Assembly (NCBI GenBank): GCA_964402815.1
Contig: CAYODP010000001.1
Coordinates: 415 to 64,414 of the forward strand
DNA from: an uncultured Candidatus Saccharibacteria bacterium
Lineage (GTDB): Bacteria > Patescibacteriota > Saccharimonadia > Saccharimonadales > Saccharimonadaceae
Length of the DNA: 64,000 nucleotides
Direction: 5' to 3'
Numbering within the stretch: position 1 is the first letter of the stretch; every line of letters begins with the position of its first letter. Below the pieces are notes generated by a model. That model had not been told where the DNA came from, did not search any database, and saw only the letters and a program-made list of their open reading frames with translations. A program made the position numbers and the translations under genes. Below, piece by piece: positions 3,885-50,783 of the stretch.

Positions 3885-4043
3885 TTCTATACCCCTCCTG
3901 AGGAAATGATTTTACTTGGGCTAATGCTTATTTTAACCCATACCTTCATTGTAGCACAGATTGGTAAAAAAGTCAAGCATATTCTTTATAAATAGGCTAT
4001 TTTTCTGGTGTTTTCTCTATAAAATCCTGAAAAATCAGGCATT

Positions 4044-14782: not shown

Positions 14783-17404
14783 ATGCAACGCAAAAAGAGA
14801 CGGTCAACTTTAACAGGACTTCTGCATAGTATTCCAATATATAGTAATAGAAGTCTTAGTCTTATTAACCATAATGGTGATAAGCATAATAAGTTATCTC
14901 ACGTTTCTAATTGTAGTATTCCTCTAGTTTGCATGGCGCTCCTGCTTTTGGGAGGAGTAGTAAGTATTAATCCAGCACTATTTGAGAATCAGAACAGTTA
15001 TGCAGTAGAAGTGGGGCAAGGTACTAACGATAATAGTACAGATAGTGAAGCTGGAATTGCTGCACAATCGATGGCAAGTCCGTCTATCAAGATGGAAGTT
15101 TCGGCAGGAACGGATGGATTTGGTAAAGGTGTGAGCGAACAAGTATCGACGGCGCCGGGAGCTTCGACAGCTTATCGCAGCCATAATATATCAGTGACAG
15201 GACATAATATTACACATTACCAGTTAACGATTTCTGGAGAAAACTTAACGAGTACGGGAGCAGGCGCAACGGAGATTGGCGGTGCGAACGGGGCGACGGG
15301 GGCGACAATGCCAACGAACACCTGGGGCTATGCTTGGGACGACCAAGACAAAGAAGTCTCGGAAATGACTTATAACACAATGACCAGTGAAGGGCAGAGT
15401 TTAGAAAATGTCGATGTACCAGAAGGAAACGGAGCAGACCACGGGTATGATGTGGACTTAAAGAAAAAGCTAGTGTTTGGAGCAAACTTTGGCGCGGATG
15501 CGCAGTCGGGTGTCTATGCGTCTAATGTTACCGTGTCGTTGACTTCAACACCACTAACACTCAGCCAAACTTGGAAGAGGCCCGCCACTATCAATAGTGA
15601 CCAATACACGGAAACACATATTGAAGCCGGGATTGACACGATGCAGGCGATTGATACGGCATGGGCAACACAATATTGTAGTGGAATGGGAACAAACGGT
15701 ACTAGCCCGGCCGGAATCAAGGTAGGAGATGTACTCGACCTGAGAGATGCGCGCGATGGCGAAGTATACCGGATTGTAAAGCTCGAAGACGGTAACTGTT
15801 GGATGCAGCAAAACCTACGGCTACAAGCACCAGAAGGCGGAAGAAACTTGACCAGTGCAGACTCTGATGTGACGAGCGACTGGCTAATGCCAGAAACGCT
15901 GGTGGCGAAGAGTGGGGAGACGACAGTGGCGGGATGGAGCAGTACTGGCGAGGTGCCGAGCTCAGCGTATTACAATAATCCGGATTATGGAGTTAATTAT
16001 AACTGGATGGCCGCGACAGCTGGCGGAGCAATGGCTAACGACGAGGCGACGAATAGTGTTTGCCCTAGGGGGTGGAAGTTGCCAACAGTATTTGAAGAAA
16101 CTGGGTCACTTCAGTACTTGACTAGTCAAATAACTTGGGCTAGCGACATTGGCTGGGCTCGACTCATGGCGCTTCCGTACGATTTTCGCAATTCCCTTTG
16201 GATGAATGCGGACGGCACATCCATCGACGGAGGGACTGACTGGGGAGCTTGGTGGTCACGTACAATATATAATGGGCAGATATATACATTGGCCATCGTT
16301 AATAATAGTTCTGACCTATTTTTTAACGTTACAGAGTTTGCTACGGGCACACCTGTTCGCTGCGTCGCTATATCAGGTTACAACGTAATCTATGATGCGA
16401 ACGGCGGGACGAATGCACCAGCGCCGCAAATCAAGAACTCGACTGCCGATACTGAACAATTTACGATTAGTGGTCAGGGTAGCATGACAAACTCGGGCTA
16501 CACTTTCTTAGGCTGGAGTACCGATAGTAATGCGACAGAGGCCGATAGCAACTATGCTCCGGGTAAGACTGTAACCATACAAAAGGCAAAGCCAGGATTA
16601 ACACTCTACGCAGTATGGGGACAAAACTGGTCGAGCGGAGTTGCCACGGGTATCACGAGGATGCAGCAAGCTAACAGCACTTGGGCGAGTGATTATTGCG
16701 GTAACGCTTCGGGAACTGGTGCCGACGCAGTAAGTGCGAAAGGCATTAAGGTGGGCGATACGCTAGACCTTAAAGATTCGCGTGACGGCCAGACTTACCG
16801 AATTGTGAAACTCGAGGACGGGAATTGTTGGATGCAGGAGAACTTAAGGTTAGTTGCGCCCAAGGGCGGTAAGCTGTTAACGAGTGCAGATTCAGATGTG
16901 TCGAACTGGACGATGCCGGAAACTGTAGCCGTGTCGAAAACGGATGTCTCTAAGTGGGTAGACAGTAACGATAAACCCTACTCTGCTTACGCAAGCGATG
17001 GGGCGAATGAGGTTTATTATAACTGGACGGCTGCAACGGCTACCGATGACTCTAGCAAAGTTACTAGTGGTAGCGTCAGCTCTAGCATATGTCCGAGCGG
17101 ATGGAAGTTACCAACTGGCAATACTGACGGGCAGTTCCAAACACTATTTACTGCTACAGGAATTACGAACAATACGGCTGGAATTAGTGAGTTCAGAAAC
17201 CTGCCCTACAATTTTACTTATACAGGATTAGTAGACTCTAGTATGTATTATAATGGGGCAGAATCTACATGGGGGGCGTGGTGGTCAAATATGGCAAAAG
17301 GTACTAGCGAGGCGTACATAGCAAACGTCTCTTCTAGCAGTTTCGGTTCAGCGTCGATGGGGCGCTATGTGGGAGCTCCAGTGCGCTGCGTCGCTACACA
17401 TTAA
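14783..17404 (+). CDS. Large surface protein: signal/TM, WxL/pilin-like module, FISUMP domain, Listeria-Bacteroides (InlB B/Flg_new) repeat, second FISUMP domain
   Basis: Two copies of DGNCWMQ.NLRL...YNW.AAT...CP.GWKLPT...WW...VRCV; YDANGGT...GYTFLGWST...LTLYAVW repeat between them; AGGAGG RBS. Confidence 0.88.
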   Translation: MQRKKRRSTLTGLLHSIPIYSNRSLSLINHNGDKHNKLSHVSNCSIPLVCMALLLLGGVVSINPALFENQNSYAVEVGQGTNDNSTDSEAGIAAQSMASPSIKMEVSAGTDGFGKGVSEQVSTAPGASTAYRSHNISVTGHNITHYQLTISGENLTSTGAGATEIGGANGATGATMPTNTWGYAWDDQDKEVSEMTYNTMTSEGQSLENVDVPEGNGADHGYDVDLKKKLVFGANFGADAQSGVYASNVTVSLTSTPLTLSQTWKRPATINSDQYTETHIEAGIDTMQAIDTAWATQYCSGMGTNGTSPAGIKVGDVLDLRDARDGEVYRIVKLEDGNCWMQQNLRLQAPEGGRNLTSADSDVTSDWLMPETLVAKSGETTVAGWSSTGEVPSSAYYNNPDYGVNYNWMAATAGGAMANDEATNSVCPRGWKLPTVFEETGSLQYLTSQITWASDIGWARLMALPYDFRNSLWMNADGTSIDGGTDWGAWWSRTIYNGQIYTLAIVNNSSDLFFNVTEFATGTPVRCVAISGYNVIYDANGGTNAPAPQIKNSTADTEQFTISGQGSMTNSGYTFLGWSTDSNATEADSNYAPGKTVTIQKAKPGLTLYAVWGQNWSSGVATGITRMQQANSTWASDYCGNASGTGADAVSAKGIKVGDTLDLKDSRDGQTYRIVKLEDGNCWMQENLRLVAPKGGKLLTSADSDVSNWTMPETVAVSKTDVSKWVDSNDKPYSAYASDGANEVYYNWTAATATDDSSKVTSGSVSSSICPSGWKLPTGNTDGQFQTLFTATGITNNTAGISEFRNLPYNFTYTGLVDSSMYYNGAESTWGAWWSNMAKGTSEAYIANVSSSSFGSASMGRYVGAPVRCVATH

Positions 17405-34659: not shown

Positions 34660-35601
34660 TTATACGATAGGAGCCTTAGGTAGGCGATGGCGCTTGAAGT
34701 GAATGATAAGCCAAACGATAAGCACGATAAGAGCGGCAACCGCGATAATAAAGACCCAAGACGGACAGACAAAGACGAGGTGAGTGAAGGTGTGTTCTTG
34801 GTCGAGGAAGGAGATTTCTTGGGTGACTTGGAAGAGGCCAAATTTGGGTGTATCGTCCCAAGTGAGAAGGCTAGCGCGCGAAGTGTCGGGGAGGACGGTG
34901 GCAACAGAGTAGCCAAGGGGTTGGCCCGACTCGGAGACACTATTAGGACTGAGTAGTTCGCGGTTACTAAAGAAGCTGCGAACGGTGAGCTTCTGGGTGA
35001 CCTTAAAGTCGGTGTTGCCAGAGTTAGTGATAGTCTGAGAGACGGCGAAAGGATGGTCCATGACAAAGCGCGGGAAGCTATGCTCAGTCATGGCGCCTTT
35101 GCTGCGGATTTCGCCGCCGTTGATATGGCCATAGAGGACAGCGGCGAGCTGACCAGTGACTTTCATGGCGCCAGTATCGGCATCACCGCCGTCGCTAAGC
35201 AGCATAATAGCAGCGTATTGACCGCCGCCGGGGACGTCGGTAGGAACTTTGACATCGAACTCAAGAGTAGTAGTCTGACCAGGCTCGAGGCGGAATTTGT
35301 CGACGGGCAGAGAAATCCAATTATGAAGCTTGGTGTAAGAATTGTCGGCGGAAAAGTCAGGCGTATAGGCACTATCGGTAACGTAATAGCGCGAGACGCT
35401 AGCTTTGACCTCAAAAGGGAGGCGGCCGACATTAGAAACATCGAGACTACCATGGTAAGTGCGACCAGGGTAAAGCTCGATGTCTTGATTAGAGGGGGTG
35501 ATGGACATGACGACATCACCAGATTCGAGAGCGAAAACGGGAGTGCTGATAAATACAGTCGCAATAAGAATAAAGATAGTGCAGAAAAACTTCTGAAACA
35601 T
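34660..35601 (-). CDS. DUF916/DUF3324-like (WxL-interacting-type) membrane-anchored surface protein, copy 2
   Basis: Signal peptide, ITP...IELYPG..Y.G...V.N.G..PF, GGQYAAIM, N.GNTDF, C-terminal TM and basic tail; paralog of 37158..38096. Confidence 0.75.
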   Translation of the reverse strand: MFQKFFCTIFILIATVFISTPVFALESGDVVMSITPSNQDIELYPGRTYHGSLDVSNVGRLPFEVKASVSRYYVTDSAYTPDFSADNSYTKLHNWISLPVDKFRLEPGQTTTLEFDVKVPTDVPGGGQYAAIMLLSDGGDADTGAMKVTGQLAAVLYGHINGGEIRSKGAMTEHSFPRFVMDHPFAVSQTITNSGNTDFKVTQKLTVRSFFSNRELLSPNSVSESGQPLGYSVATVLPDTSRASLLTWDDTPKFGLFQVTQEISFLDQEHTFTHLVFVCPSWVFIIAVAALIVLIVWLIIHFKRHRLPKAPIV

Positions 35602-35617
35602 GATTTTAATTAATCTC

Positions 35618-37036
35618 CTAGCCAGCAGTGGCAGTAACAGTTACGGTGGTGGAATAGGTATCAGCGTTAAGATTAGGGGTGACTCCGATGCCAACGATGA
35701 AGTCGAGCGGTGAGGTGCCGTCGCTACCAGCGGCAGAGCGGTAAAAGGTGATAGGGGTGCCATCGCCAACGGCACTGTAAATACCGGTGTCAGTGGCGTC
35801 ACCGCGAGTACCCGTATCGGTGGCGGAAAGTTTCTTCTGAACGCCCCAGCCGAGCTCACCGTCTTGGAGGTTGTCTTTGGCAGGAATACTATTGGAATTA
35901 CCGGAAGTGGTAGCGCTTAGCATAGTCTGGCCAGCAGCAGTACTGAAGCCGATGGAAAATTGCTGATTAGCGGTAACGCTGGCGCCGATTTTGCCAGTGA
36001 CGATTTTGTCGCTCTCGGCTGCGAGGCTGACGGAATTGGTGGAGAGGCTGAGACTGAGGGTAGGGTTGACAATAACATTGAGGTTGGCGTCAGCGGAGGC
36101 GGAAGGGAGGACGGAGGAGGGGTCGGAAGGGGGAGCGGCGACGCACCGCACCGAGGAGCCGTAGTAGCGAAGGCTGCTGTAGGACGGGTTAACATAGCCA
36201 CTGCTGAAGTTCAGGAAGTACGCGTAGCTAACATTACTAGAGCGCACCGTACTAGACCAATAGTAACCGTTGGAGCCCGAATTGTTCAGGCCATCGCCAT
36301 CGACGAGACCGGCAGCGGGAAAGAACGCGTCATTTGAGTTATAACCGAGTTTTATACCGTTCACTCCACCAATAGTCGTCCAGCTTCCAGCAAAACCTTC
36401 GTTCAATTTGCTATAGGTACCAATATTCGTATCGGTATTTGATGGTAAAGTCCAACCTTTCGGGCAAATGCTTGAAGGAGCGTCACCGGAATCTGTGCAA
36501 GTCCCTGCCGTAGCCGTGCACCAAGAGTAGTAATTTCCGTAAGCTGTGTTCCAAGCACCGCTACCATTTATTTTCATGCTCGAACTACCTTCTGCCATAT
36601 TCTGCGAAGTTTTGTCCGTGCCCCAGTTATTAATCTCGTTATTAATCGCCTGATTGTCCGGTAACGTGTACGCCGAAGTTACATCACTATTAGTACTGTC
36701 TAATGATGTTCCGCCTGGTAACCGTAAATTCTCCACCATCCAGCATTTACCATCATTCATCTTCATAATTTTGTAGGTCTTATCATCACGTTTATCGGTA
36801 AGCTGCAAAGTAGCACCGACGGCAACGACATCGTCTTTGTCGCTACCACAGTAGGGTTGGCTGAAGTTTTCTTGAGTGATATCTTGCATATTAGTAAGAC
36901 CAGTGGCGATAGTACGCCCGCCATTGTTCTGCCAGACCGCTCCGCCGGTAGCAGCAAGAGTGGGCTGCGGTAAGATTGACAGGCAGCTAGCGAGTAGCCC
37001 GCCAGCCAACATGGCAACTTTGATTTTTGTGCGCAT
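35618..37036 (-). CDS. Surface protein: signal peptide, FISUMP domain, C-terminal WxL/pilin-like module
   Basis: DGKCWMVENLR, YGNYYSW, ICPKGWTLPS, FFPAAG, GYYWSST, SVRCV; the C-terminal ~165 aa align with 38098..38631 (WGVQK/WGIQK, YST.VTVTA). Confidence 0.85.
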   Translation of the reverse strand: MRTKIKVAMLAGGLLASCLSILPQPTLAATGGAVWQNNGGRTIATGLTNMQDITQENFSQPYCGSDKDDVVAVGATLQLTDKRDDKTYKIMKMNDGKCWMVENLRLPGGTSLDSTNSDVTSAYTLPDNQAINNEINNWGTDKTSQNMAEGSSSMKINGSGAWNTAYGNYYSWCTATAGTCTDSGDAPSSICPKGWTLPSNTDTNIGTYSKLNEGFAGSWTTIGGVNGIKLGYNSNDAFFPAAGLVDGDGLNNSGSNGYYWSSTVRSSNVSYAYFLNFSSGYVNPSYSSLRYYGSSVRCVAAPPSDPSSVLPSASADANLNVIVNPTLSLSLSTNSVSLAAESDKIVTGKIGASVTANQQFSIGFSTAAGQTMLSATTSGNSNSIPAKDNLQDGELGWGVQKKLSATDTGTRGDATDTGIYSAVGDGTPITFYRSAAGSDGTSPLDFIVGIGVTPNLNADTYSTTVTVTATAG

Positions 37037-37157
37037 TTGTTTGCTCCTATTTGTTATAAAAATACATTAACCTTATGGTATATATTATAGCAAGCGAGAG
37101 CGAGCTTCGCAAGAGTGAACTAAGTGAATTAGATTGCTACGCGCAGAGTTTTGGAAG

Positions 37158-38096
37158 TTAAAAGACTTGCGGTTTCTGGCGACGGCGATGACGCGCGGCA
37201 AGAATAATCCAAAGAATAGCCAAAGCGAGTAAAACCAGGAGCGAAATCAGCAACCAGCTGGGGCAAAAGATGACAATGCGTTCTTCATTAACTTCACTAT
37301 CGAGGAAACGAATAGTCTGACGTACGCGATAAACGCCAAGGCGGGGTGAATTTTCCCAAGTGATGACGTTTTGGCGCGAGGTGCCGGGTAGAATGACCGT
37401 ACTGGACGAGCCAATATTAGCGCTGCTAGAATCTCGAGTGTCAGGATTGATGATTTCCTCGCCAGTGAGTAAGTTGGTAATGGTAACAGCATGATAAACT
37501 TTGAAATCAACATTACCGGTATTGTAAGTAGTCTCGGAAATCTGGAGGTCACCATCAATAATAAAACCCGGAATGAGCTGTTCAACAACTTCTCCAGACG
37601 GATTAATCTCCGCGCCATTGATGCGACCATAAAGAATGCTGGCAACTTGCGAAATCACCTGCAAAGACGAGCCTTCTTGTTTGCTATCTTCAGTACGTGC
37701 CATAATTGCGGCGTATTGGCCACCACCTACGACATCTTCGGGGACGTGGACAGTATAGCTGACATCTACTGAAGTATCGGGCTCAAGATAGTAAGATTCT
37801 TCGGCAAAAGTAATCCAGCTAGACAGGCGGGTGTAGATATTCTCGGTCGAAAAATCTGGATCGTAAGTTTCGCTATCAACTTGAAAAGGCATGGCGGACA
37901 TTTTGGCGGTGAAAGGTTTTTTACCGTTGTTGGCAAGCTTTACGGTACCGGAATATTCTTGGCCAGGATTGAGCTCGATAGTCTGAGTGGCTGGGTAAAT
38001 GGTCATCACAATATCGTCATCGCTAGATGCCGAAGCAGGTTGGGCAAAACTGCCCAACCCAAGCAAGAATGTCAAAATAATAAGAAACTTTTTCAT
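37158..38096 (-). CDS. DUF916/DUF3324-like membrane-anchored surface protein, copy 1
   Basis: Signal peptide MKKFLII..., IYPATQTIELNPGQEYSGTVKLANNG, GGQYAAIM, NTGNVDF, C-terminal TM and RHRRRQK tail. Confidence 0.75.
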   Translation of the reverse strand: MKKFLIILTFLLGLGSFAQPASASSDDDIVMTIYPATQTIELNPGQEYSGTVKLANNGKKPFTAKMSAMPFQVDSETYDPDFSTENIYTRLSSWITFAEESYYLEPDTSVDVSYTVHVPEDVVGGGQYAAIMARTEDSKQEGSSLQVISQVASILYGRINGAEINPSGEVVEQLIPGFIIDGDLQISETTYNTGNVDFKVYHAVTITNLLTGEEIINPDTRDSSSANIGSSSTVILPGTSRQNVITWENSPRLGVYRVRQTIRFLDSEVNEERIVIFCPSWLLISLLVLLALAILWIILAARHRRRQKPQVF

Positions 38097-38097
38097 C

Positions 38098-38631
38098 CTA
38101 AGGCGCAACTGCAGCGGTTACAGTAATATCAGTGGAGTAAGAACCGGCTGGAAGGATAGGAGAGATACGAACACCAACGTTAAAATCGGTTACACTACCA
38201 CCGTTCTCACTCGGCGCAGCGCTCGTATAGAAGACAGCTGGGGCTGTACCGATGGCAGTATAAGCAGATTCGCCAATTTTCTGAATGCCCCAGGTATTAT
38301 TAACGGTGGCGTCGCCAGCGTTAATGGTATCGGTGATATCGGCAGCACTCAACGCAGGCTGTTCGGCACTGAGCGAGATGGTATATTTGCTACCAGACGA
38401 AACCGTGGCCGAAAGTGTGCCGTTGGCAATGTCAGAGGGCTTAGCGGTAATCTCGGTAGCGCTAACGTTAGAAAGAGTGAGCGCATTCTCCACAGTAAGA
38501 CTAAACTTAGTCCGACCAGTGACAGGAGCGACGTCTGCAGCCGAAACATTAGAAGTAATTGTGGTGAGTGTTACCGCAAGTGCTACTAAAAGGCTGCCTG
38601 ATACGAAAAGTTTTTTGACGATACTTTCCAT
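38098..38631 (-). CDS. Small secreted WxL/pilin-like beta-sandwich protein
   Basis: Signal peptide; Ser/Thr/Val-rich alternating beta pattern; NTWGIQK; ends AGSYSTDITVTAAV. Confidence 0.75.
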   Translation of the reverse strand: MESIVKKLFVSGSLLVALAVTLTTITSNVSAADVAPVTGRTKFSLTVENALTLSNVSATEITAKPSDIANGTLSATVSSGSKYTISLSAEQPALSAADITDTINAGDATVNNTWGIQKIGESAYTAIGTAPAVFYTSAAPSENGGSVTDFNVGVRISPILPAGSYSTDITVTAAVAP

Positions 38632-39043: not shown

Positions 39044-39111
39044 TCGTCAGGTTATTACCACGTTTAAGGAGGGCTAGTTGTATTATTGGAACTTTATGAT
39101 ATAATGTTGAT

Positions 39112-39963
39112 ATGATAGAGTTTTGGGGCTTCATTAGAGATACTTTCTTATTGAAAGCATGGTTTACGCCACTCGCACTGATTATTGGCGGTATATGGGC
39201 ACTGTTCCTTTTTCGGTCATCAAATAAGCATGAACGTGATAATAACGAATTGCTAAATCAACCTAGGTTTAAGTTCTTCGACTCAATGAATTGTCATAGC
39301 GAGATTAAACGATCGTGCGATACGCCAGAAAGCACCTGTCGACCAATGCCAGATTGTTGTTGTAATCCAGAGTGTGATAAAGTTCATTGGTTCGATATAA
39401 AAAATGATGGTAATTTTCCTGCAGAGCAGATTACTATTTCGATGGTCTTAGAAGGTGAGAAGGACTTTAGAGCTAAATTAGCCGAGAGAGTAATGGGTGT
39501 TAAGCACCTACAAGCGCAGGAGTCCTTACAATACAGTATAAATGCCAGTAGTCTCCCTTCTATATTCTATAACGCAAAAGCCATAGGATACAACTATCGT
39601 TTCTATGTTTTGTTGCAGTATCGTTCTGGCTACTCGAAGTACTGGTACAGACGAGTTTATCAGATTGACGCGAGCAAAATATCTAGAGAGATACAGTCGG
39701 AAAGATATGACGGTAAAGACGCGCCAAAGTCAGTATGGGCACGAGGAATAGAATTTTATGGCATGAGCGAGCAAGATTGCAAATGTCAAAAAGATGTTTC
39801 TATACTACGGGGTTTTGGCGCATATAGAAAAAGAAGACAGCAAGATACAATAGAGCAGTATGCTAATAATTGGGTTAATGATTTCTATGAAGTAAGTAAA
39901 CTCGGACATCTTATCGGTCGCATAGGGCGAAGATTCTCTCGACATAAGTGGTGGATGCTTTAA
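39112..39963 (+). CDS. Hypothetical protein with N-terminal TM and Cys-rich segment
   Basis: 283 aa; TATAAT 6 nt before the ATG; CH..KRSC..PESTC..MPDCCCNPEC cluster. Confidence 0.75.
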   Translation: MIEFWGFIRDTFLLKAWFTPLALIIGGIWALFLFRSSNKHERDNNELLNQPRFKFFDSMNCHSEIKRSCDTPESTCRPMPDCCCNPECDKVHWFDIKNDGNFPAEQITISMVLEGEKDFRAKLAERVMGVKHLQAQESLQYSINASSLPSIFYNAKAIGYNYRFYVLLQYRSGYSKYWYRRVYQIDASKISREIQSERYDGKDAPKSVWARGIEFYGMSEQDCKCQKDVSILRGFGAYRKRRQQDTIEQYANNWVNDFYEVSKLGHLIGRIGRRFSRHKWWML

Positions 39964-39987
39964 TCCAGCACTGAGGCGGTACAACAT

Positions 39988-41376
39988 ATGCCATGCAAAA
40001 TAGATTTAACTGGCCAGAAAGCTGGAACTCTAACTGCTAAAGAGTATATTGGTAATAGTAAATGGCGGTGCATCTGTAATGTGTGCGGAAACGAAGTAAT
40101 CATAAATACTGATTGGTTTAGAAAACTTGATAGGCTTGGTAGGGGTGGGTGTAAACATGTTAAACCAGTATCAGTTGGTAATAGGTATGGCTACCTCACT
40201 GTCATTGGCTCAGCCGAGGATTATATTAAACCGAAATCTGGTGCTCATGAGCGACAATGGCTTTGTCAATGCGTATGCGGTAGAGAGAAAGTTATTCTCG
40301 AAGATAATCTCAAATCTAACAAAAGTATGACTTGCGGAATGTGTAGTACGCAAGTTTCTATTCCAGAGAAAGCGATACTTTTTTATTTAAGGAAGGTATT
40401 TAATGAAGTCATTGAAAATTATAGACCTGATTTTTTAGATGGCAGAGAGATTGACATATACATACCTGTAATCAAGCTGGGAGTTGAGTATGATGGCGAA
40501 AGGTGGCATTCTGACATTAATAAGGATCTTCGTAAAGATGAGGAGTGTAAGTTGCATGGGGTAAGAATAGTTAGGATTCGAGAGCCAAATTGCCCAATGA
40601 TGCCAGATGCAATTATTACACCTAAGCCAATCATGAATGGTAACCATATGACCGCACCAATAAAGACCCTCCTCGAAATAATCGAAAAAGATTATAAGAT
40701 AAAGACTTGTATAAATGTGGACTGTTGTAGAGATAATGCAGAAATCTGCAAAACTCTTACAGCTGGCACAAATAGCAGATCTTTAGCCGAACTTAGCCCT
40801 GATATTGCAAGAGAATGGGACTATGATAAAAATTACCCATTAACACCAAATGAAATAGCCAATCGAGCAGGTAGGAAAGTCTGGTGGCGTTGCTCTCAGG
40901 GGCATAGCTATAGCTCTGTCGTAGCTTCTCGAACAGGCAAAAATGCTTGTGGATGTCCAATCTGTGCTGGCGTGGGATCTAGTACTTATAAAAATGGGAA
41001 ATACCTAGGGGAGCATTCTCTCGCGAAAGAATGTCCTGACGTAGCCGCAGAATTTATGGAAGCAAAAAATGGAGTAACTGCAAGCAATATATCAGTATCA
41101 AGCAATAAGAAAATGTGGTTTAAGTGTTCAAAGTGCGGTCACGAATGGCAATCTAAAGTAAATAATAGGACTTCTTCAAACAAACAGGGATGTCCCATAT
41201 GCGGCAGAGAGAAAGTGAGGCTAAGCCGTTGTAATCCAGTTCTATGTATAGAAACGGGTGAGCTATATGAAAGCATAACGGATGCGCAGAGGAAAACTGG
41301 CATAAATAATATATCTGCTTGTTGTGGGGGACGACTAAATACTGCGGGTGGATATCATTGGAAATATGCCGATTAG
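39988..41376 (+). CDS. Multi-zinc-ribbon nuclease-like protein (Vsr/DUF559-like PD-(D/E)xK core, DUF4379-type repeats, NUMOD1-like tail)
   Basis: KIDLTG...KWRCICNVCG repeats; EIDIYIP..KLGVEYDGERWH; two SLA...P.IA.EW...VWW.C...H...RT...CPIC repeats; PVLCIETGELYESITDA...NISACC...TAGGYHW. Confidence 0.8.
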   Translation: MPCKIDLTGQKAGTLTAKEYIGNSKWRCICNVCGNEVIINTDWFRKLDRLGRGGCKHVKPVSVGNRYGYLTVIGSAEDYIKPKSGAHERQWLCQCVCGREKVILEDNLKSNKSMTCGMCSTQVSIPEKAILFYLRKVFNEVIENYRPDFLDGREIDIYIPVIKLGVEYDGERWHSDINKDLRKDEECKLHGVRIVRIREPNCPMMPDAIITPKPIMNGNHMTAPIKTLLEIIEKDYKIKTCINVDCCRDNAEICKTLTAGTNSRSLAELSPDIAREWDYDKNYPLTPNEIANRAGRKVWWRCSQGHSYSSVVASRTGKNACGCPICAGVGSSTYKNGKYLGEHSLAKECPDVAAEFMEAKNGVTASNISVSSNKKMWFKCSKCGHEWQSKVNNRTSSNKQGCPICGREKVRLSRCNPVLCIETGELYESITDAQRKTGINNISACCGGRLNTAGGYHWKYAD

Positions 41377-41403
41377 TGCTATTGTATTTTTACTTCGGCT
41401 ATT

Positions 41404-41715
41404 CTAATCTGTAATATGTAAGTAGTATTTCAAGTTTTCGCCCTTCCAATTATCTAATACCCACCCATGATATTCTTCCCATAACTCTGCATATAGTTTG
41501 CCATATTTATCGCCAAGTTTGGAACGAGGCTCACTATACCAATACCAGCATTTATGGTTAAGTACCATTGAGAGTTCTGTTCCATATATACGATTATCTT
41601 TCCACTCAGCTTTAGCTCTTTCGTAAGTATCTCGTATGGTTTCCACTCCGAAACGGTCAGCTATATCGAAGTCTTCCCAAAAGGTAGTCTGACACTCATA
41701 ATCTAACAAACGCAT
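41404..41715 (-). CDS. Hypothetical phage/MGE-type protein
   Basis: 103 aa, Trp/Tyr-rich (TTFWEDFDIADRFG...NHKCWYWY); overlaps the upstream gene's stop, as in an operon. Confidence 0.7.
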   Translation of the reverse strand: MRLLDYECQTTFWEDFDIADRFGVETIRDTYERAKAEWKDNRIYGTELSMVLNHKCWYWYSEPRSKLGDKYGKLYAELWEEYHGWVLDNWKGENLKYYLHITD

Positions 41716-41936
41716 TTCTTATACTTCCGCATAAAACTATCGACCGTACCATATTCTGTTTCAATATAGCGCTTATAAGTATCATAATTGAGCATAATAT
41801 CTCGGTATTCTCGGCTGGTAATGCCACAAGCCTTAATCGCTTTATAGGCTTCCATAATCATATTATATCTACCACTTCTACGAACTTCCTCGTACTTGTA
41901 AAAGTTAGGCTTCCAGTTCTCATTTATCAAAGTCAT
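41703..41936 (-). CDS. Small hypothetical protein (weak DUF5049-like V..SG.YNM motif)
   Basis: 77 aa; abuts its neighbours; motif YEEVRRSGRYNMI. Confidence 0.6.
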   Translation of the reverse strand: MTLINENWKPNFYKYEEVRRSGRYNMIMEAYKAIKACGITSREYRDIMLNYDTYKRYIETEYGTVDSFMRKYKKCVC

Positions 41937-42215
41937 CTAAGGTTCCACCTCACAATTACTCGACGTTCTCGTCCATATATGCTCGACAATCTCACCGTCA
42001 GCCCAAAGTTTATATTCCAATTGACTCAAGTAGTTCAGTCTATCTTCAAGACTTGGGAACATTGTATCGTCCACCATCACAAAGTGATGCTCTCCATCTG
42101 TACCTAGATATTTCATAACCGTAATTGACTTTGGAGATAAATGTTTCATAACAACAATTATTGTTAGAAATACGTAAAAAGTAAATGACAAAAATATAGC
42201 CTCTAAGTTCAACAC
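41937..42215 (-). CDS. Small hypothetical protein, paralog of 43618..43857
   Basis: SPKSITVMKYLGTDGEHHF matches SENSVTIMKYKSPDGVYDF; the true start may be the downstream Met (MKHLSP). Confidence 0.6.
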   Translation of the reverse strand: MLNLEAIFLSFTFYVFLTIIVVMKHLSPKSITVMKYLGTDGEHHFVMVDDTMFPSLEDRLNYLSQLEYKLWADGEIVEHIWTRTSSNCEVEP

Positions 42216-42285
42216 TTAAAGGCTGTTATTGCTCAGACTTAAAACTTTTCCACTAACTGCCGTTTAGCCGAGGTGGCGTTGTGAA

Positions 42286-42312
42286 CTAGCACTCACTATT
42301 GACGAGTGCTAT
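42286..42312. promoter_or_regulatory. CIRCE-like inverted repeat (HrcA operator consensus)
   Basis: CTAGCACTC-ACTATTGAC-GAGTGCTAT versus the consensus TTAGCACTC-N9-GAGTGCTAA: exact 9-nt spacer and 8/9 per arm. Confidence 0.7.
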
Positions 42313-42327
42313 AATGGGGGCTATAAT
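42299..42327 (+). promoter_or_regulatory. Sigma70 promoter overlapped by the CIRCE-like repeat
   Basis: TTGACG-17 nt-TATAAT; the ATG at 42334 lies at the expected transcription start. Confidence 0.75.
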
Positions 42328-42333
42328 GTGGAT

Positions 42334-42909
42334 ATGAATACCGATAGTTTAATTACTTTTTTCCAAAAAAAGATTGCCGAGATTGATAAGCTGAATGGCT
42401 TAGGTTTAGATAATGCGGAGTTTCAAAAATGGCATGCGGCTATATTGGCTACTTGCAAACGCATGGGCGGAGACTATGCGTCGAGATTTGACGAAATTAG
42501 CTATATGCCAGCAGTGTGGACTATTGATGGCGACAACAGTGAACTCTTTGCTTATGCATACGACAAAGGGCTATTAAGTGCAAAAGCGCTGCTTGAAGCT
42601 TTTGTAGAAGAACTTGAAACTTGGGGATACGATGGCGACTCCAAGGCAGAAAAATCAAAAGTCGCAAAGAGTCAACAACCAGCCGTTAACGTAAATGTCT
42701 CGCAAAATCAGACTCAATCTCAGTCCATATCCACCTCAATCAATCTTTCAGCCTACAATGAAGAAACGCAAGAAAAACTCAAGGAGCTTGCCGAGGAGAT
42801 TCGTAAACCAAATAATCGCAGCAAGGTCACTTCAATTATTAAATGGCTAGCAGACAAAAGTGCTGACGCGCTCATTGCCCTTCTGCCGACAATGATTAAA
42901 TTTGAGTAA
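42334..42909 (+). CDS. Hypothetical helical protein, first gene of a two-gene operon
   Basis: ORF track starts at GTG 42328, but ATG 42334 fits the promoter; Q/S/N-rich linker; its stop overlaps the next start. Confidence 0.75.
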   Translation: MNTDSLITFFQKKIAEIDKLNGLGLDNAEFQKWHAAILATCKRMGGDYASRFDEISYMPAVWTIDGDNSELFAYAYDKGLLSAKALLEAFVEELETWGYDGDSKAEKSKVAKSQQPAVNVNVSQNQTQSQSISTSINLSAYNEETQEKLKELAEEIRKPNNRSKVTSIIKWLADKSADALIALLPTMIKFE

Positions 42910-43582
42910 GTTACGCATGATAAGTGCTTCAATGAAACGCAGCCATGATAGTGACACAAATCAAACAAAAGAAAAACTACTAGATTTTGTATCTAAATCT
43001 ACAAAGAAAAGTGTTTGCCATGATGCTGACCAGCTCCTAGAGCTATATGACGCATATGATGCCGCCTATATAGCGGCTACTGAGTATTTTATCTACTATT
43101 GTATTATCGCCGCTCCAAGCGTAGCTGATTATTTCAATGCGGCAGACGGTGGTCGGACTTGGCAATTTATCGGTGATGCCATATTTGACGAGGGCGTAAA
43201 TGCTTTATGGCAGTTTTTTGATCGGAGCGGTTTAAATATAATTCAAAGATTCGATAGAGCTTTTGGTACAAAAATCGGTAATCTCATTCAAGATGAGAGA
43301 ATAAAGGAGCTTAAAGAATATCGTCATAAACGTGCCGCCCATCGTAACAAAAATATTCATGAGAAAACTAATATACGTTACGAAACACCAATTCACGTGT
43401 TAGACAAGTTAAGGGTGGTCAAAACGAAATTTGATAATGAGGCAGGTTTGGCTCAATCGATTTATATGCTTGATATCGAAAACTCATGCGTGATGAGGAT
43501 TGCTTGGATACTCAATGATCTAAAGATACCAGAGAATATGTCCGAAAAAATATTGAAAGAAATTCACGACTTATGTTCGTAA
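42902..43582 (+). CDS. HEPN-like protein (AbiU2-like)
   Basis: Helical 226 aa with ELKEYRHKRAAH (R-x5-H, at 43322-43342); upstream DEG..ALWQFFD pattern. Confidence 0.55.
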   Translation: MSKLRMISASMKRSHDSDTNQTKEKLLDFVSKSTKKSVCHDADQLLELYDAYDAAYIAATEYFIYYCIIAAPSVADYFNAADGGRTWQFIGDAIFDEGVNALWQFFDRSGLNIIQRFDRAFGTKIGNLIQDERIKELKEYRHKRAAHRNKNIHEKTNIRYETPIHVLDKLRVVKTKFDNEAGLAQSIYMLDIENSCVMRIAWILNDLKIPENMSEKILKEIHDLCS

Positions 43583-43617
43583 AGTAGATGTCTAAATATG
43601 CAATAGATAAGTGCTTA

Positions 43618-43857
43618 TCATAAATCAAATATCGGCAAAGTCTTAATCCATAAAACTTCGTAGCCCTCAGCCTCTATTCTCTGCTTCTCTTTAATCATAG
43701 CATCTAGCCGCTCCACCTCGTCCGCTACGTTCCACTTATCAAGACACTTGAAGTCATATACTCCATCTGGAGACTTATACTTCATAATAGTGACACTATT
43801 TTCGCTCGCTGGGTTCATGCTGTCTCCTCTCTTCCACTTTTCGTTTGTGTTCTTCAA
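43618..43857 (-). CDS. Small hypothetical protein, paralog of 41937..42215
   Basis: See paralog; probable start MNPASEN. Confidence 0.6.
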   Translation of the reverse strand: MKNTNEKWKRGDSMNPASENSVTIMKYKSPDGVYDFKCLDKWNVADEVERLDAMIKEKQRIEAEGYEVLWIKTLPIFDL

Positions 43858-44236
43858 ATCTTTTCTTGTCTAGTTGCCTAAACTGTTCCCAAACCACTCT
43901 TCGCTCATCGCCCTCCAATAACCTACTTCCGTCCATACTAACTTCAAAAACTGAGGAGCTATTGCTGTCGTGATCCATGCGACTAGACTGCTCGGCATAC
44001 AAAACGAGATGATTACCAACTTTCCCCAAAAAGTAATCAAACCCACCAAACATTCCCAGAATGGTAATATGCTGACCATTCTCCCATCCTAGCAAACTTT
44101 CGTCAATCTTTGGGAACTCAAAATCAGGGTTTTCATCTAAGTACTTGTCAAAGTCACAAAACTTACACCGTTCAATAATCAGCTTCCTAAAGTTTTGCTC
44201 TAGTTTATTCAAACTGTTTGTGTTATTTTCCGCCAT
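43796..44236 (-). CDS. Hypothetical protein
   Basis: 146 aa; GMFGGFDY...LYAEQSSR...FEVSMDGSRLL core followed by a charged helix. Confidence 0.7.
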   Translation of the reverse strand: MAENNTNSLNKLEQNFRKLIIERCKFCDFDKYLDENPDFEFPKIDESLLGWENGQHITILGMFGGFDYFLGKVGNHLVLYAEQSSRMDHDSNSSSVFEVSMDGSRLLEGDERRVVWEQFRQLDKKRFEEHKRKVEERRQHEPSERK

Positions 44237-44253
44237 GGTTTTCTAATCCTATT

Positions 44254-45033
44254 TTACCATCTCCCACAACTTAGACCATACTGAGCGCACTTTGCTTCGT
44301 CAAGAGCAAGACCAGCACTTACGACTGCCTCCCAAGTTATCGGTGCCGAACCCATACCGAGGCAGTCCATGGTATTATAGCCCTTCGAGTTGGCATAATT
44401 CATATACTGTTTTCCCATCGAGACATTCCATAAATCATCGCCTTGACCAGTAAATTTCGCAATGCCAAAGAAAGATTTTTCCTCAGCAACTACACATTGC
44501 CCATTCTCGTCCAGCGTCCAAAATGGATAGGACTTAGTGCCAGCCACATACTTATCATTGAGATTATAATCAGGCTTTTTAGCTGGTTGCGTAGGCTGAG
44601 ATGGTTGGCTTGGAGCGGAGGGCTGGCTGGGTTGAGAGGGCTGGGTAGTAGGAGTGCTTGGTTTAGAGGAGGAAGCATTACTTGACTGATTATTAAGAGC
44701 CGAACTATTATTTAGCTTTTGCGTAGTAGTCTGTGAGTTATTAGCCGTCGACTTACCATCTTCACCCGCCTGCTCGGTTTTGTTATTATCGTCCTCAGAC
44801 TCTACAGTCTCTCCAATTTGCGTATCTTTCTGCTCGAATGGGGAGTTGTCGTCATCGGAATTATTAGCGACAATTTGTGTCTCCTCGTGTGGCTGATTAG
44901 CATTTATAATTGCCACCGTTCCGGCAGTGCCGCCTGCCACGACCGCAACCGCTCCGACTCCAAGACCTACCTTTGCGGCGAGACTCGCACCCTTAATGGT
45001 AGTTATTATAGAGGTAAAACTTATCATATTCAT
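44254..45033 (-). CDS. Membrane-anchored low-complexity surface protein
   Basis: N-terminal Gly/Ala/Val TM, acidic/Ser/Asn-rich stalk, QPS repeats, Cys-containing C-terminal domain; AAGGAG RBS. Confidence 0.8.
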   Translation of the reverse strand: MNMISFTSIITTIKGASLAAKVGLGVGAVAVVAGGTAGTVAIINANQPHEETQIVANNSDDDNSPFEQKDTQIGETVESEDDNNKTEQAGEDGKSTANNSQTTTQKLNNSSALNNQSSNASSSKPSTPTTQPSQPSQPSAPSQPSQPTQPAKKPDYNLNDKYVAGTKSYPFWTLDENGQCVVAEEKSFFGIAKFTGQGDDLWNVSMGKQYMNYANSKGYNTMDCLGMGSAPITWEAVVSAGLALDEAKCAQYGLSCGRW

Positions 45034-45079
45034 ACTCCTTGCCTTGAATTATGGGACTTTTGCGGAAAAATATAAACCC

Positions 45080-45970
45080 CTAATTTGCGTTGTAGCCGTA
45101 ATCTCCACGAGTTAGCAAGATATTCTTCCACCAAGACTCTCTCGCAATAATTGCCTCGTCATCGGTCGTAGATTTATAAATGTCGAGGATTGAATAACGG
45201 AAGTTATTCTTCACATATTCTAAGCCGTTTTCTTCAACTAAGGCTTTCAGCTCCTTGTTGTGGCCATGACCATTTTCAGCATAATTTCGCCACCTGCCGA
45301 GCAACATAGTATCACCATAAGCCGAACCGACATAACGTTTATTAGTAGCAGTATCGGTTATGAGATAGACTGCTTTTTGGTTTTCTAGTGCTGTCTGCCA
45401 ATTCTTGAACTTCAGAACTCTACGCAGATCGTTCCACGACAAATCAACATTCTCATAGCCCGGAAAATCTTCACCAAGTTCATTGTAGGGGTGTTCGAGA
45501 ATGGTTTTAACATATATGGAGTCAATAATATCTTCACTACGCACTACCACATTTCTGCCTTTGTCTTCAAAATGTACCACTAGCCGACCAAAGAATGGAG
45601 CATACTCAGCAAGGTTCTCCTCATCAGCGTCAATCAAAAACTTACTATCGTCCAGTACCTTATAGGCATTTACAAGCAACCAGTCTTTATCGGAAGAATA
45701 TGGAATAAAACAAAATACAATATCACCATTCTTAAACCGTTTATAGCCGTCTGGGTTATGTGTCTTGACCGACTCTTCCACAACGGCAACCTCGCCAGAA
45801 CGATACATAGCAAGCAAATCAAAATATCTCGGCTGATCGCCAAGTTTTTCTACAACCTCAGGAGCCTGTTTTTCTGCGTCATACTGCCAATTGCTGTTGA
45901 AGACGAGTTTAAGTTTACCCATATCTTCGTCTGATAGGTGGAGTAAACTGGTGAATTTAATAGTGCTCAT
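45080..45970 (-). CDS. GIY-YIG nuclease family protein
   Basis: AVYLITD...KRYVGSAYG...LGRW.NY...GHG.N.EL...FRYSIL...ARESWWK.IL..R..GYNAN. Confidence 0.85.
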   Translation of the reverse strand: MSTIKFTSLLHLSDEDMGKLKLVFNSNWQYDAEKQAPEVVEKLGDQPRYFDLLAMYRSGEVAVVEESVKTHNPDGYKRFKNGDIVFCFIPYSSDKDWLLVNAYKVLDDSKFLIDADEENLAEYAPFFGRLVVHFEDKGRNVVVRSEDIIDSIYVKTILEHPYNELGEDFPGYENVDLSWNDLRRVLKFKNWQTALENQKAVYLITDTATNKRYVGSAYGDTMLLGRWRNYAENGHGHNKELKALVEENGLEYVKNNFRYSILDIYKSTTDDEAIIARESWWKNILLTRGDYGYNAN

Positions 45971-46002
45971 TTTTTGCTTGCCCTTTCCGGTCGCCTGATA
46001 AC

Positions 46003-46141
46003 AAAAAATGCGACCATGTACTTAGTCGCTTTAACCTTAACAAAACCAGTTCTAGGAACGATTTTGCGTACATAGCCGCATTTCTTCCTAGAACCTACGG
46101 CAAAACTACCGTTGGTTGTTCGGTTTTATTAAGATTAAAGC
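46003..46141 (-). ncRNA. Structured RNA or terminated leader upstream of the GIY-YIG gene
   Basis: Minus-strand 20-bp stem 46141-46122 / 46047-46028 (with G:U) enclosing hairpins ACGG/CCGT and GTTCTAGGAA/TTCCTAGAAC; terminator GCGAC-10-GTCGC-ATTTTTT; extended -10 TGGTATAAT at 46148-46156. Confidence 0.6.
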
Positions 46142-46607
46142 AATTCTATTATACCACATTACGCCACAAAAGAGAAGATGGTTTACTTGCTCTGAAATAG
46201 GTTGAAGCTGACTTCTAGATGATAAGAACAAACGCTAAATCGCAAAAACGCAAATTTCTTTGCCAAATTATTCAAAATATTACATTGGGTATATACAATG
46301 TACAAAAGTACGGCATTATATCATACATCACGAAAAAAGAAAAATTGACAGCAAGCACCTAACGTGGCATTCTTTACTTTAAATATATAGTGCCTTACAA
46401 TAGAGGTAAGCTAAAGGTAAAACCGCATCTGCCTAAGTGAAATGTCGAGGAGATGGCTGAGAAAATCACCTTTAGATAATTGGGAGTTTAACCAGCGCGA
46501 GGCTGCGTGAAATAAAAAGCGCTCAGTAAAAACAATACTAAAGTTGTATTAGAACAGCTCATTGTTTTTGATGCATAAAAGCATGATGATAAGGAGGTAT
46601 ATTTTTC

Positions 46608-46910
46608 ATGCCCAAAAAACAGGACGAACCGCAAAAAATCAGAACATACAAAGAATTATCGCAAAAGGAGCAACCTTTTGCGGGCTTCAAAACTGGCGAG
46701 CAATTGCCACTCTTTGAGATGCCACCAGCTTTGGCAAGCCCAGCTATCAGCCAAGGCTTGCCAAAGCTGCAGCAGCTACTCTCTGAGCAAGGTATTGAAA
46801 TTGGCAGTTTTGATGAACTTTACACCGCTGCAATCAGTATTATTCGTTTCGTAGCGGCTAAGGAGAAGCAGGCAATTTTAAAGAATATCGAGGAGAAAAG
46901 GCATGAATAA
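46608..46910 (+). CDS. Small hypothetical protein preceding the helicase
   Basis: AAGGAGG RBS; overlaps the start of the next gene. Confidence 0.75.
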   Translation: MPKKQDEPQKIRTYKELSQKEQPFAGFKTGEQLPLFEMPPALASPAISQGLPKLQQLLSEQGIEIGSFDELYTAAISIIRFVAAKEKQAILKNIEEKRHE

Positions 46911-48885
46911 TACAAAACAATCCCTAGTAAAACTTGTGGTGAATCGCATTATCAATGATTCGTCCATTAGGCTTTTTACTGACCAAAATAATGAGGCGTA
47001 TATCTCCACAACTGGCGATGGTAGGCAAGTATATGATCTGGATTCACAAGAGGCTCAAGATTGGCTTGCTGGTTATGTTATGGATAACTTTAATAACGAG
47101 GTTTTATTGCGTGACCAACCTAAAAATATTTTAGAAACCCTGCGAGGTTTCGCACAACATCGTGGTAGTAAAAGAAATCTTGAGTTGCGAACTGCTTTTG
47201 ATGAAAACCAAAATCTTTGGTACGATTTGGGTCAATACGCTGTGCGCATTACACCTGATGGCTGGAAGATTGACGCTTGCCCGCCCATTCTTTTCGCTCG
47301 TAACTATACTCAAGAACAACAAGTATTGCCAGTAACTGGCGGAACAATTTGGGAGTTGTTTGATTACATTAATGTTAAAGATGTTCAGGACCGAGTATTG
47401 CTAATTGCCTTTTTAATCGCTGCGTTAGTGCCAGGCATCAACAAGCCGATCCTAGCATTATCAGGTCCAGCAGGCAGTGGCAAAAGTGAGTGCACAAAGA
47501 CGCTAAAAAGCCTCATGGACCCAACAATGCCACCAAGTTTGCCGCCAATTACCAACGTCGAAGAATTAGATAAACTCGCTCAAACTAGCGCCGTCATGGC
47601 CTTTGACAATCTTACAACCATGAACACAAAAATCGCCAATCACTTCTGTTGTCTAGCAACAGGTTACGGTGTGCGCATTAGAAAACTATATACTCAACGC
47701 TACATTATTTTCAACGCTATTCGTCCGCTAATTATCAATGGTATATCTCAGGTTATTACTCAATCCGATCTGCTCAATCGTGCCATAGTAGCCGAACTAT
47801 CACCAATCGAGAAGCGTGTAGAAGATTCCGAATTGCATAAGAGATTCAATGAAGCTCGTCCGCGTATCCTAGGCGCTATGTTCGAGTTGCTGTCTAGGGC
47901 AATGAAAATCCTACCCACTATCGAACGTACTGAGTGGCCGAGGATGGGTGGGTTTGCTAAGTGGGGCTATGCCATCACGGCGGCACTAGGCAATGGCTAT
48001 ACTGGTGAAACGTTCATGAAAGCGTTTAAGAAGGTAGAAGCCTTGCAACACAGTGAGGCGTTGAGCGCTAACCCATTTGCAGAAGTAATCACTTGGTTTA
48101 TGCGTGACCGAGAAACATGGGTTGGAACTGCTGGGGAGCTCCTAGACAAGTTAGAGTCCGTATCACAGAATAGTAGTAACCCAGATATTAAGTACTGCCC
48201 AAAAAGCTCATATTGGCCAGCTAATCCTAGGTCTGCCAGGGTCCAGATTCAAAAAGCCCTAGCGGATCTAAAGTCAGCGGGAATTATCGCTTTTCTACCA
48301 AGCGGGAGTGGGCGTACTATTCGTCTAGTAAATGCTGATCTTCCTATTAGTAAAACACTACGTAGCGCTTTAGATAGTCCATCCCCAAATGGCCACACTT
48401 ATACTGAACAGGGTTATGTTTTGAATGACTTAGAACCGCATTGTGTCGGCGTAGTATCTAGCAAATACACCAATCTTGATGAAAGGGGTGAACTGGTCCT
48501 TAAAGATGAAGTAATGTCTGGGAAAATTATTCCCGAAATTATTACAGGTGATACTGCTGATGCTCCGAGCGTTAGTGGTATAGCAGATTTCATTGAACGC
48601 CTTGTTGAGTATAAATTGCCCAAGACCGAGAAACGTCTTGAAATTGAAACACAGCAACGTGAAGAAAAAGAGCATGAGAGAAAAGCCCAACTTGAAGAAA
48701 AACGGAAACATGACAAGGAATATCAAGAGGAGTGTAAACGCAGACAAAAAGAACAGGAGGAGAAAGAAGCTAATAGGAAGCAGAAAAAGGCGAAGTATCT
48801 AGCTGATTGCGAGAAGTATGGTATGCCAGTGAATGAAGACTATCTTGCGTACGTTGAGAGTGGCTGGGGTGAAATCCCATTCTAG
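46903..48885 (+). CDS. P-loop NTPase, putative replicative helicase of the element
   Basis: Walker A LSGPAGSGKS, AFDNLT (Walker B-like), R.LYT, IINGI, DLLNRAIV; charged coiled-coil C-terminus. Confidence 0.8.
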   Translation: MNNTKQSLVKLVVNRIINDSSIRLFTDQNNEAYISTTGDGRQVYDLDSQEAQDWLAGYVMDNFNNEVLLRDQPKNILETLRGFAQHRGSKRNLELRTAFDENQNLWYDLGQYAVRITPDGWKIDACPPILFARNYTQEQQVLPVTGGTIWELFDYINVKDVQDRVLLIAFLIAALVPGINKPILALSGPAGSGKSECTKTLKSLMDPTMPPSLPPITNVEELDKLAQTSAVMAFDNLTTMNTKIANHFCCLATGYGVRIRKLYTQRYIIFNAIRPLIINGISQVITQSDLLNRAIVAELSPIEKRVEDSELHKRFNEARPRILGAMFELLSRAMKILPTIERTEWPRMGGFAKWGYAITAALGNGYTGETFMKAFKKVEALQHSEALSANPFAEVITWFMRDRETWVGTAGELLDKLESVSQNSSNPDIKYCPKSSYWPANPRSARVQIQKALADLKSAGIIAFLPSGSGRTIRLVNADLPISKTLRSALDSPSPNGHTYTEQGYVLNDLEPHCVGVVSSKYTNLDERGELVLKDEVMSGKIIPEIITGDTADAPSVSGIADFIERLVEYKLPKTEKRLEIETQQREEKEHERKAQLEEKRKHDKEYQEECKRRQKEQEEKEANRKQKKAKYLADCEKYGMPVNEDYLAYVESGWGEIPF

Positions 48886-48957
48886 TGAAGCATGCCGACA
48901 TAATAAACCATTTATTTTTATCACAGAAACTCACATAATTGTCAATAGGAGGAAGAA

Positions 48958-50721: not shown

Positions 50722-50783
50722 CACAGCTTAAAATCGCCACTACCACCTCAAGGTAGCGTGTCTACCAATTCCACCACGGGCAC
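50695..50783 (-). tRNA. tRNA-Leu (anticodon GAG)
   Basis: Acceptor GTGCCCG/CGGGCAC-A-CCA; D loop GGAATTGGTAGAC; anticodon stem CTACC-TTGAGGT-GGTAG; long variable arm; T arm GTTCAAGTC. Confidence 0.95.

Follow-up and report, generated by a model that had tools for sequence, protein, structure and literature searches.

An internal CLec2-type variable region, possibly a dormant DGR target, in a FISUMP surface protein gene of a Saccharibacteria bacterium from the rodent gut

Analyses of DGRs have defined the CLec2 class of variable regions (DUF1566/DUF823/Fib_succ_major; category ‘d’ in Wu et al., 2018), which accounts for 14% of DGRs and has LdtA of Legionella pneumophila as its prototype target (PMC5758913). 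Remote targets and occasional internal variable regions are on record in the same survey, which includes only one CLec2 case with an internal variable region (PMC5758913), and multiple remote targets are served by the TvpA-type DGR of Treponema denticola (PMC5758913). Among the catalogued DGRs, 23% show differences other than A-to-N, and a single target can have as many as 11 (PMC5758913). According to a standing idea, variable regions are placed C-terminally because the homing signals required in cis need freedom from coding constraint (PMC8144416). An internal position is rare for DGR targets with a lectin fold. Saccharibacteria are of particular interest here, as these bacteria live as epibionts and their surface adhesins probably decide host attachment.

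In the present study we analyzed a 64-kb stretch of DNA from a Saccharibacteria bacterium, hereafter the window, to which all positions refer. The gene under study and its parts, all on the minus strand, are:

35618..37036 (-): gene for a 472-aa secreted protein (open reading frame list, domain matches, orthologues alike in architecture)
36137..36805 (-): FISUMP (Fib_succ_major) domain, aa 78-300 (TIGR02145 and PF09603 above cut-offs)
36137..36307 (-): codons 244-300, segment of variable-region type with homology to template repeats of DGRs (contig differences, alignment of a template-like contig)
36246..36281 (-): upstream constant block flanking the core (over-represented among related contigs)
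36170..36245 (-): hypervariable core, codons 265-289 (low related-contig depth; several contigs skip the core)
36184..36204 (-): patch with all five non-adenine mismatches to the template-like contig TR-B, in codons 278, 281, 282 and 285
36137..36169 (-): 3' constant block RYYGSSVRCVA (identical in the template-like contig; homology ends at 36137)
36023..36334 (-): run of 104 codons without an A-ending codon, the signature described in the initial annotation
36061..36136 (-): Pro/Ser/Ala linker on C/T-rich DNA (sequence; no stable hairpin)
35621..36060 (-): C-terminal beta-sandwich module of 147 aa (tblastn paralogy, structure model, Foldseek)

The 472-aa protein belongs to the FISUMP / Fib_succ_major family, as TIGR02145 matched aa 78-300 with 65.1 bits (NCBIfam cut-off 41.65) and PF09603 (Fib_succ_major) aa 96-299 with 39.8 bits (Pfam cut-off 33.9), in addition to a weak overlap with Lcl_C at aa 254-299. 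A signal peptide with a possible lipobox (LASC) is followed by the FISUMP domain, the Pro/Ser linker and the C-terminal beta-sandwich module, an architecture shared with the orthologues P0003-P0005, P0008, P0012 and P0013, and almost all homologues originate from Candidatus Saccharibacteria. The scaffold of 36137-36307 is that of the CLec2 class, and the segment displays the lectin-like scaffold with constant ends around a core that is expected of a DGR variable region; a C-terminal position with an IMH and a hairpin downstream is likewise expected of such regions, but the segment is internal and no hairpin follows it. As the initial annotation had claimed, the variable region is internal, with the linker and the 147-aa module behind it. 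An anchoring module of about 165 aa was postulated there; 172 aa stand between the segment and the C-terminus of the protein, and the module resembles a fibre- or pilin-type subunit more than a plain anchor. The lectin-like head would carry a variable ligand-binding face, and the linker would join it to a fibre-subunit-like tail.

The codon usage at the end of the FISUMP domain was the starting point of this work. An A in third position occurs in 0/57 codons of the segment (codons 244-300) vs 20% in codons 78-243, and the abrupt loss of A-ending codons reported in the initial annotation is therefore real. The A3-free run comprises 104 codons (codons 235-338), twice the next longest among the 47 open reading frames of the window, with a P of about 2e-4 under the gene's own A3 frequency. 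It is the longest run of the window, but it proceeds past the domain end, to which it had originally been ascribed, into the linker (0/25 A3) and the module, where A3 amounts to 7%. As the run thus exceeds the domain end, the signature is that of a template-derived segment plus a generally C-ending 3' half of the gene. A raw codon signature of this kind, namely the lack of A-ending codons together with scattered NNC codons, can flag a DGR target without a template in view.

Neither a second copy of the segment nor the inferred template was found in the 64-kb window by word-7 blastn, and an RT motif is absent from all of its open reading frames, so that the earlier statement of a window free of template repeat and RT holds by both checks. 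The scaffold pattern of the variable region gave no match in the genome-contig and metagenome-contig collections searched. However, the window is near-complete in four runs from 2021 (X1-X4) of one study and partially represented in rat-gut metagenomes; assembled (Logan) contigs of the four runs, in which rare variants are dropped, were aligned to the region, and contigs of at least 80% likeness were recruited to the window. Many contigs with 85-95% identity were recruited along the whole FISUMP domain, which points to a multi-copy family. Within the segment, the blocks 36138-36173 and 36246-36281 are over-represented 10-20x among related contigs, and the core between them only about 4x. Contig differences inside the segment fall almost only on codon positions 1 and 2, and those upstream of codon 240 on position 3.

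One recruited contig, TR-B (assembled to 2683 nt in X3 and 2354 nt in X2, and present as a 74-nt piece in each of X1 and X4), aligns gap-free to 36137-36274 with an 86% DNA match to the window. It carries AAC or AAT at every variable codon (VNSSNVNNAYNLNFNSGGVNPANNNNRYYGSSVRCVA) and is for this reason read as a template repeat. Its 37 adenines are concentrated at codon positions 1 (17/37) and 2 (18/37). The ten codons CGC265, AGC270, TAC271, TTC274, AAC276, AGC278, TAC286, AGC287, AGC288 and CTT289 face AAC/AAT in TR-B, much as had been proposed for the variable codons from the sequence of the gene, but TCC285 faces GCC and TAT281 faces GGA. Of 19 mismatches between window and TR-B, 14 lie at template adenines, although adenine makes up only 27% of the template (P=5e-6). 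The 33 nt of the 3' constant block (36137-36169) are identical to TR-B, and third positions are identical except in one patch. TR-B is a candidate for the near-identical copy differing at template adenines that the initial annotation had proposed to look for, with the restriction that five mismatches are at other bases, all of them in codons 278-285, so that the pair is not strictly A-to-N.

TR-B follows the window in abundance. Its depth was 38 vs 26.7 for the window contig in X1, 7.9 vs 6.68 in X2, 28.3 vs 27.8 in X3 and 53.4 vs 53.1 in X4, which corresponds to a ratio of 1.0-1.4 in 4/4 runs across an eight-fold range, depths of short contigs being imprecise. From this co-variation in four samples of one study we infer that TR-B resides in the same genome as the window.

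Further copies of the segment were found among the contigs. A second internal copy (414/518-nt contig), with a P0003-like linker behind it, departs from the window at 15 sites, each of them a codon position 1 or 2 and 13/15 of them template adenines; it has four of the five patch states, and at codon 281 position 2 it matches TR-B instead. In a third copy, which has a 3-nt insertion, all non-adenine sites at which window and TR-B disagree carry the TR-B base. A C-terminal paralogue would be the copy in line with the present TR-B. As the five mismatches are clustered and four of them are common to the second internal copy, they appear to reflect an older template state rather than noise; among contigs of at least 80% likeness, there was no template with the patch of codons 278-285. 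The window copy itself showed zero differences at contig level in all four runs of the one study, and no alternative contig joins its linker in these runs. The claim of a remote DGR target accordingly stands with regard to a CLec2/FISUMP-type variable region and a template-like repeat outside the window in the same population, and is weakened by the five non-adenine mismatches to TR-B and the lack of contig-level variation in the four samples.

Comparison with relatives extends this picture. Among the orthologues of the same architecture P0003, P0004 and P0005, the segment is 43-51% identical, in contrast to 79-86% in both flanks. At the patch, the segment of P0003, which is equally internal, agrees with TR-B at the protein level, hence internal copies can be in register with a template. 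The core is passed over by a contig from rat-gut relatives that carries linker and module at about 91% identity. Between the four templates of the syntenic relative L032 and the internal segments of its orthologous genes, 52-87 mismatches were counted in 189 nt. IMH/hairpin signals, which the initial annotation expected inside the coding sequence downstream of the segment, could not be confirmed, as no hairpin follows the segment and the linker DNA folds with only -4.3 kcal/mol (z = -1.0).

The template pattern (N-P-x-NNNN-R..G..VRCV) was found at 57 loci in species-representative genomes, 22 of which belong to MAGs of Saccharibacteria, Nanosyncoccus or other Patescibacteria; the remaining loci are mostly from Alistipes and other Bacteroidales, plus two unclassified MAGs. 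Matches of the Saccharibacteria lineage sit in short open frames and are therefore non-coding templates, and a short-query protein search returned small open reading frames annotated on template repeats. A DGR-type RT (IGNLTSQ...YVDD) lies within about 4 kb of the template at 15 loci of this lineage, including L001, which was found separately. Twelve loci possess a pair of template and variable region with 11-26 mismatches each, 100% of them at template adenines; the stop follows the variable region at a distance of 1-3 codons, and in 10/12 of these perfect pairs the RT is within about 4 kb of the template. In the pairs of L014 and L019, whose templates are among the closest to TR-B, homology ends right after VRCVA, as it does between window and TR-B; an objection that the window copy lacks a 3' extension of homology was therefore rejected. 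A perfect-stem scan of eleven perfect Saccharibacteria pairs revealed a downstream hairpin in only 2/11, not a shared one, and for this reason a downstream hairpin may not define the local Saccharibacteria DGR clade. Altogether, the FISUMP-type DGR family is widespread in animal-gut Saccharibacteria.

The RT of this genome was found neither in the window nor among the RT candidates examined. A profile search returned >5000 RT matches, from which two contigs (L062 and L063) were examined, each with a 340-aa open reading frame, an RT and a partial tRNA-Gly-like gene and without a template. The RT genes of the loci L019, L050 and L006 share only about 73% DNA identity. Presumably, an RT is present in this genome outside the window.

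Several features of the related loci were observed in passing. Saccharibacteria DGRs have two layouts, with RT and then template on the same strand or with template and RT convergent. Homology of template and variable region continues in one group for 42-109 nt beyond the stop, through a TTCCG-rich pyrimidine tract, and in the other it stops after VRCVA (L011, L018, L022, L028, L035, L040, L041, L046, L048, L056, L059 and L061 were compared with L014 and L019). An open reading frame of 300-340 aa without Pfam match overlaps the RT start in L019 (reverse strand 3323-4225), L063 (7444-8466) and L062 (1761-2783); this frame is conserved within one DGR clade of Saccharibacteria and may encode an accessory protein, which would exceed Avd in size by far. 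The contigs L062 and L063 end about 170 nt after the RT, in the 5' part of a tRNA-Gly(GCC)-like gene, which was read from the sequence and not called by ARAGORN. Since in L006 the template sits between the RT and the same tRNA-Gly-like gene, L062 and L063 may have lost or relocated their template. The MAG CAZOPB01 harbours four template-like repeats on four contigs (L009, L032, L044, L054) and no RT in the flanks examined; the variable region closest to the L032 template lies on another of these contigs, L009. Tandem arrays of 3 to 13 units, template- or variable-region-like, ~160 nt long and a few hundred bases apart, were seen in L015, L023, L029, L034, L047 and L055 (Alistipes, Bacteroidales) and in L002; a DGR RT adjoins some of them, and mismatches between their units have no adenine bias.

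The gene is part of a four-gene surface cluster (34660-38631, minus strand), which is syntenic in L032 and includes the following neighbours:

38098..38631 (-): 177-aa secreted protein with the same module only, candidate fibre subunit (tblastn; 203-aa syntenic homologue in L032)
37158..38108 (-): 316-aa surface protein with a C-terminal transmembrane helix (match to WxL-interacting protein PF06030 weak and below threshold, E = 0.14; syntenic in L032)
34660..35601 (-): 313-aa protein paralogous to that of 316 aa, encoded immediately after the gene under study (66% nucleotide match to L032 7369-7976)

The 313-aa protein likewise has a C-terminal transmembrane helix. The C-terminal module, for which no sequence-family match was obtained, is paralogous to the 177-aa neighbour (tblastn match to 38113-38484) and was modelled as a beta-sandwich (pLDDT 78.7, pTM 0.70). 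In Foldseek (best E-value 7e-4), its leading matches were TLP-1a, TasA and two kinds of fibre subunits built by donor-strand exchange, the Csu and type-1 pilins; these matches have a query-normalised TM-score of 0.45-0.52 and an identity of 9-14%. Two-domain fimbrial tip adhesins such as FimH and CsuE consist of a lectin head plus a pilin domain. The fold of the module together with the stand-alone module next door suggests an adhesin of lectin head and fibre tail, as in FimH, which is a lead from structural modelling and not a demonstrated membership. The products of the four-gene cluster may assemble on the surface, as a fibre or a WxL-like system.

Between the cluster and a tRNA-Leu (50695-50783), which it adjoins, lies an island of ~11 kb with low GC (39-44%; 39100-50300). 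It contains:

39988-41376: DUF4379 zinc-finger protein
45080-45970: GIY-YIG nuclease
48958-50259: large serine recombinase

The island is probably an integrated mobile element. In L032, the surface cluster is situated next to tRNA-Leu, and the island's position is taken by another FISUMP gene and the template repeat of a DGR. Two further FISUMP genes are present in the window:

222-1031 (+): further FISUMP gene
14783-17404 (+): further FISUMP gene with two FISUMP domains and a Listeria-Bacteroides repeat

Both were rejected as targets of TR-B, with a DNA match of at most 23 nt. P0002, from another assembly, combines the N-terminus of the 14783 gene with a C-terminal FISUMP domain like that of the 472-aa protein. 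Domain shuffling among FISUMP genes appears evident from the sequences, because P0002 joins a 14783-type N-terminus to a FISUMP domain 87% identical to that of the window protein.

We consider it somewhat more probable than not (about 0.55) that 36137-36307 is a genuine CLec2 DGR variable region in an internal position, with its template elsewhere in the genome and most likely dormant or rarely rewritten. The segment would owe its sequence to adenine-mutagenic reverse transcription, with a template-repeat lineage at another place in this Saccharibacteria genome as the source; the window copy would keep an older template state, and the C-terminal paralogue would match the template of today. The internal placement would result from the two-part nature of this surface protein, with a lectin head followed by linker and fibre-subunit-like tail. 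Dormancy or rare rewriting is favoured because the window copy departs from TR-B at the patch and is fixed in four samples. Five non-A-to-N mismatches are, however, no proof of inactivity, given that 23% of DGRs were reported to have such differences, at most 11 per target (PMC5758913), and low-frequency diversification at the window copy is possible, as Logan contigs hide rare variants. An active remote target, where a co-resident DGR rewrites the internal region in trans, with the 33-nt constant block as a homing signal in coding sequence and the non-adenine differences as tolerated noise or as the product of a second, unseen template, is a possible, if rather doubtful, alternative. It would agree with the 3' constant block shared with TR-B, the end of homology as in the L014 and L019 pairs, the strong adenine bias (P = 5e-6), the hypervariable segment of orthologues with internal architecture and the rat-gut contig with linker and module that skips the core, as well as with a relative in which template and target lie apart (of its four templates, that of L032 is closest to the C-terminal copy on another contig, L009) and the documented non-A-to-N differences and remote targets (PMC5758913). 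Yet noise would hardly cluster in one patch, or recur with four of five states in another copy; a second template with this patch did not appear among contigs of at least 80% likeness, another copy equals TR-B at the very same non-adenine sites, and no contig-level variation of the window copy was seen in four samples. We hold it unlikely that rewriting in trans proceeds with all cis recognition in the 33-nt constant block plus the C/T-rich DNA of the Pro/Ser linker inside the reading frame; if true, an epibiotic Saccharibacterium would vary the lectin head of a fibre-tip adhesin and keep the fibre-building tail.

A passive origin is improbable in our view: the FISUMP domain would have been diversified as a C-terminal target and then recombined to a place before linker and tail, never having been a target in its present context. 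The 87% identity of the FISUMP body to the C-terminal FISUMP of P0002, whose N-terminus matches the window gene 14783..17404, the relation of the C-module to a different set of proteins (P0003-P0005) and the fact that likeness to templates and other copies breaks off at 36137, at the start of the linker, are all consistent with such an event, and the same applies to the L032 orthologues, whose internal segments are 52-87 mismatches in 189 nt away from all four templates, and to the 85-95% identical contigs over the whole FISUMP, which fit a recombining multi-copy family. The second internal copy, however, has a different linker and shares four of five patch states, and yet departs from the window at 13 template adenines, which suggests diversification in internal context or repeated transfers, and the hypervariable segment of the internal-architecture orthologues likewise speaks against a merely passive history. 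Hardly credible is an ordinary conserved FISUMP end unrelated to any DGR, with a codon bias caused by the content of Ser, Tyr, Asn and Gly and by a GC-rich 3' half. YWSS...SVRCV is indeed the family consensus and the A3-free run extends well into linker and tail, but this would leave unexplained why a contig with AAY at all variable codons matches the DNA gap-free at 86%, why third positions are identical outside one patch and why copy differences are confined to codon positions 1 and 2, and the other FISUMP genes of the window have no such DNA match.

With regard to known systems, four groups come closest to the locus. Like FimH and CsuE, the protein has an N-terminal domain of carbohydrate-binding type, then a C-terminal beta-sandwich resembling donor-strand pilins, and a stand-alone module is encoded next door; unlike in these adhesins, the likeness is one of fold only, no usher or chaperone was recognised, and the organism is a Gram-positive-like epibiont. 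As in the TvpA-type DGR, one template and RT would serve several scattered paralogous surface proteins of lectin fold, but lectin subclass and phylum are different, and multiplicity is here deduced from contigs alone, which yield at least two copies besides that of the window. Cassettes of gut Saccharibacteria and Nanosyncoccus (such as L019, L014, L011, L022 and L040) possess the same scaffold (G.NG.YWSS...NAYNLNF...NP.NNNNR.NG.SVRCV) and templates of about 75-83% DNA identity to TR-B; the cassette pairs are 100% adenine-specific and near the stop, in contrast to the imperfect window copy, which lies inside its gene and at a distance from any template. Finally, CLec2 targets correspond in the variable region formed by the last ~55 residues of a lectin-like domain of FISUMP/Lcl_C type in a secreted, possibly lipidated surface protein, in constant ends and AAY-templated variable codons, and in the remote targets known for a CLec2-type DGR; they differ from the window region in that the latter is internal, with 172 aa after it, has five non-adenine mismatches and no RT in the window. 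The target class is thus already known, and the window copy of this rodent-gut Saccharibacteria bacterium is a further case in the rare internal position. If active, it would offer a natural test of the idea that coding constraint keeps variable regions C-terminal; if dormant, it would illustrate the decay of a target once moved out of its canonical context.
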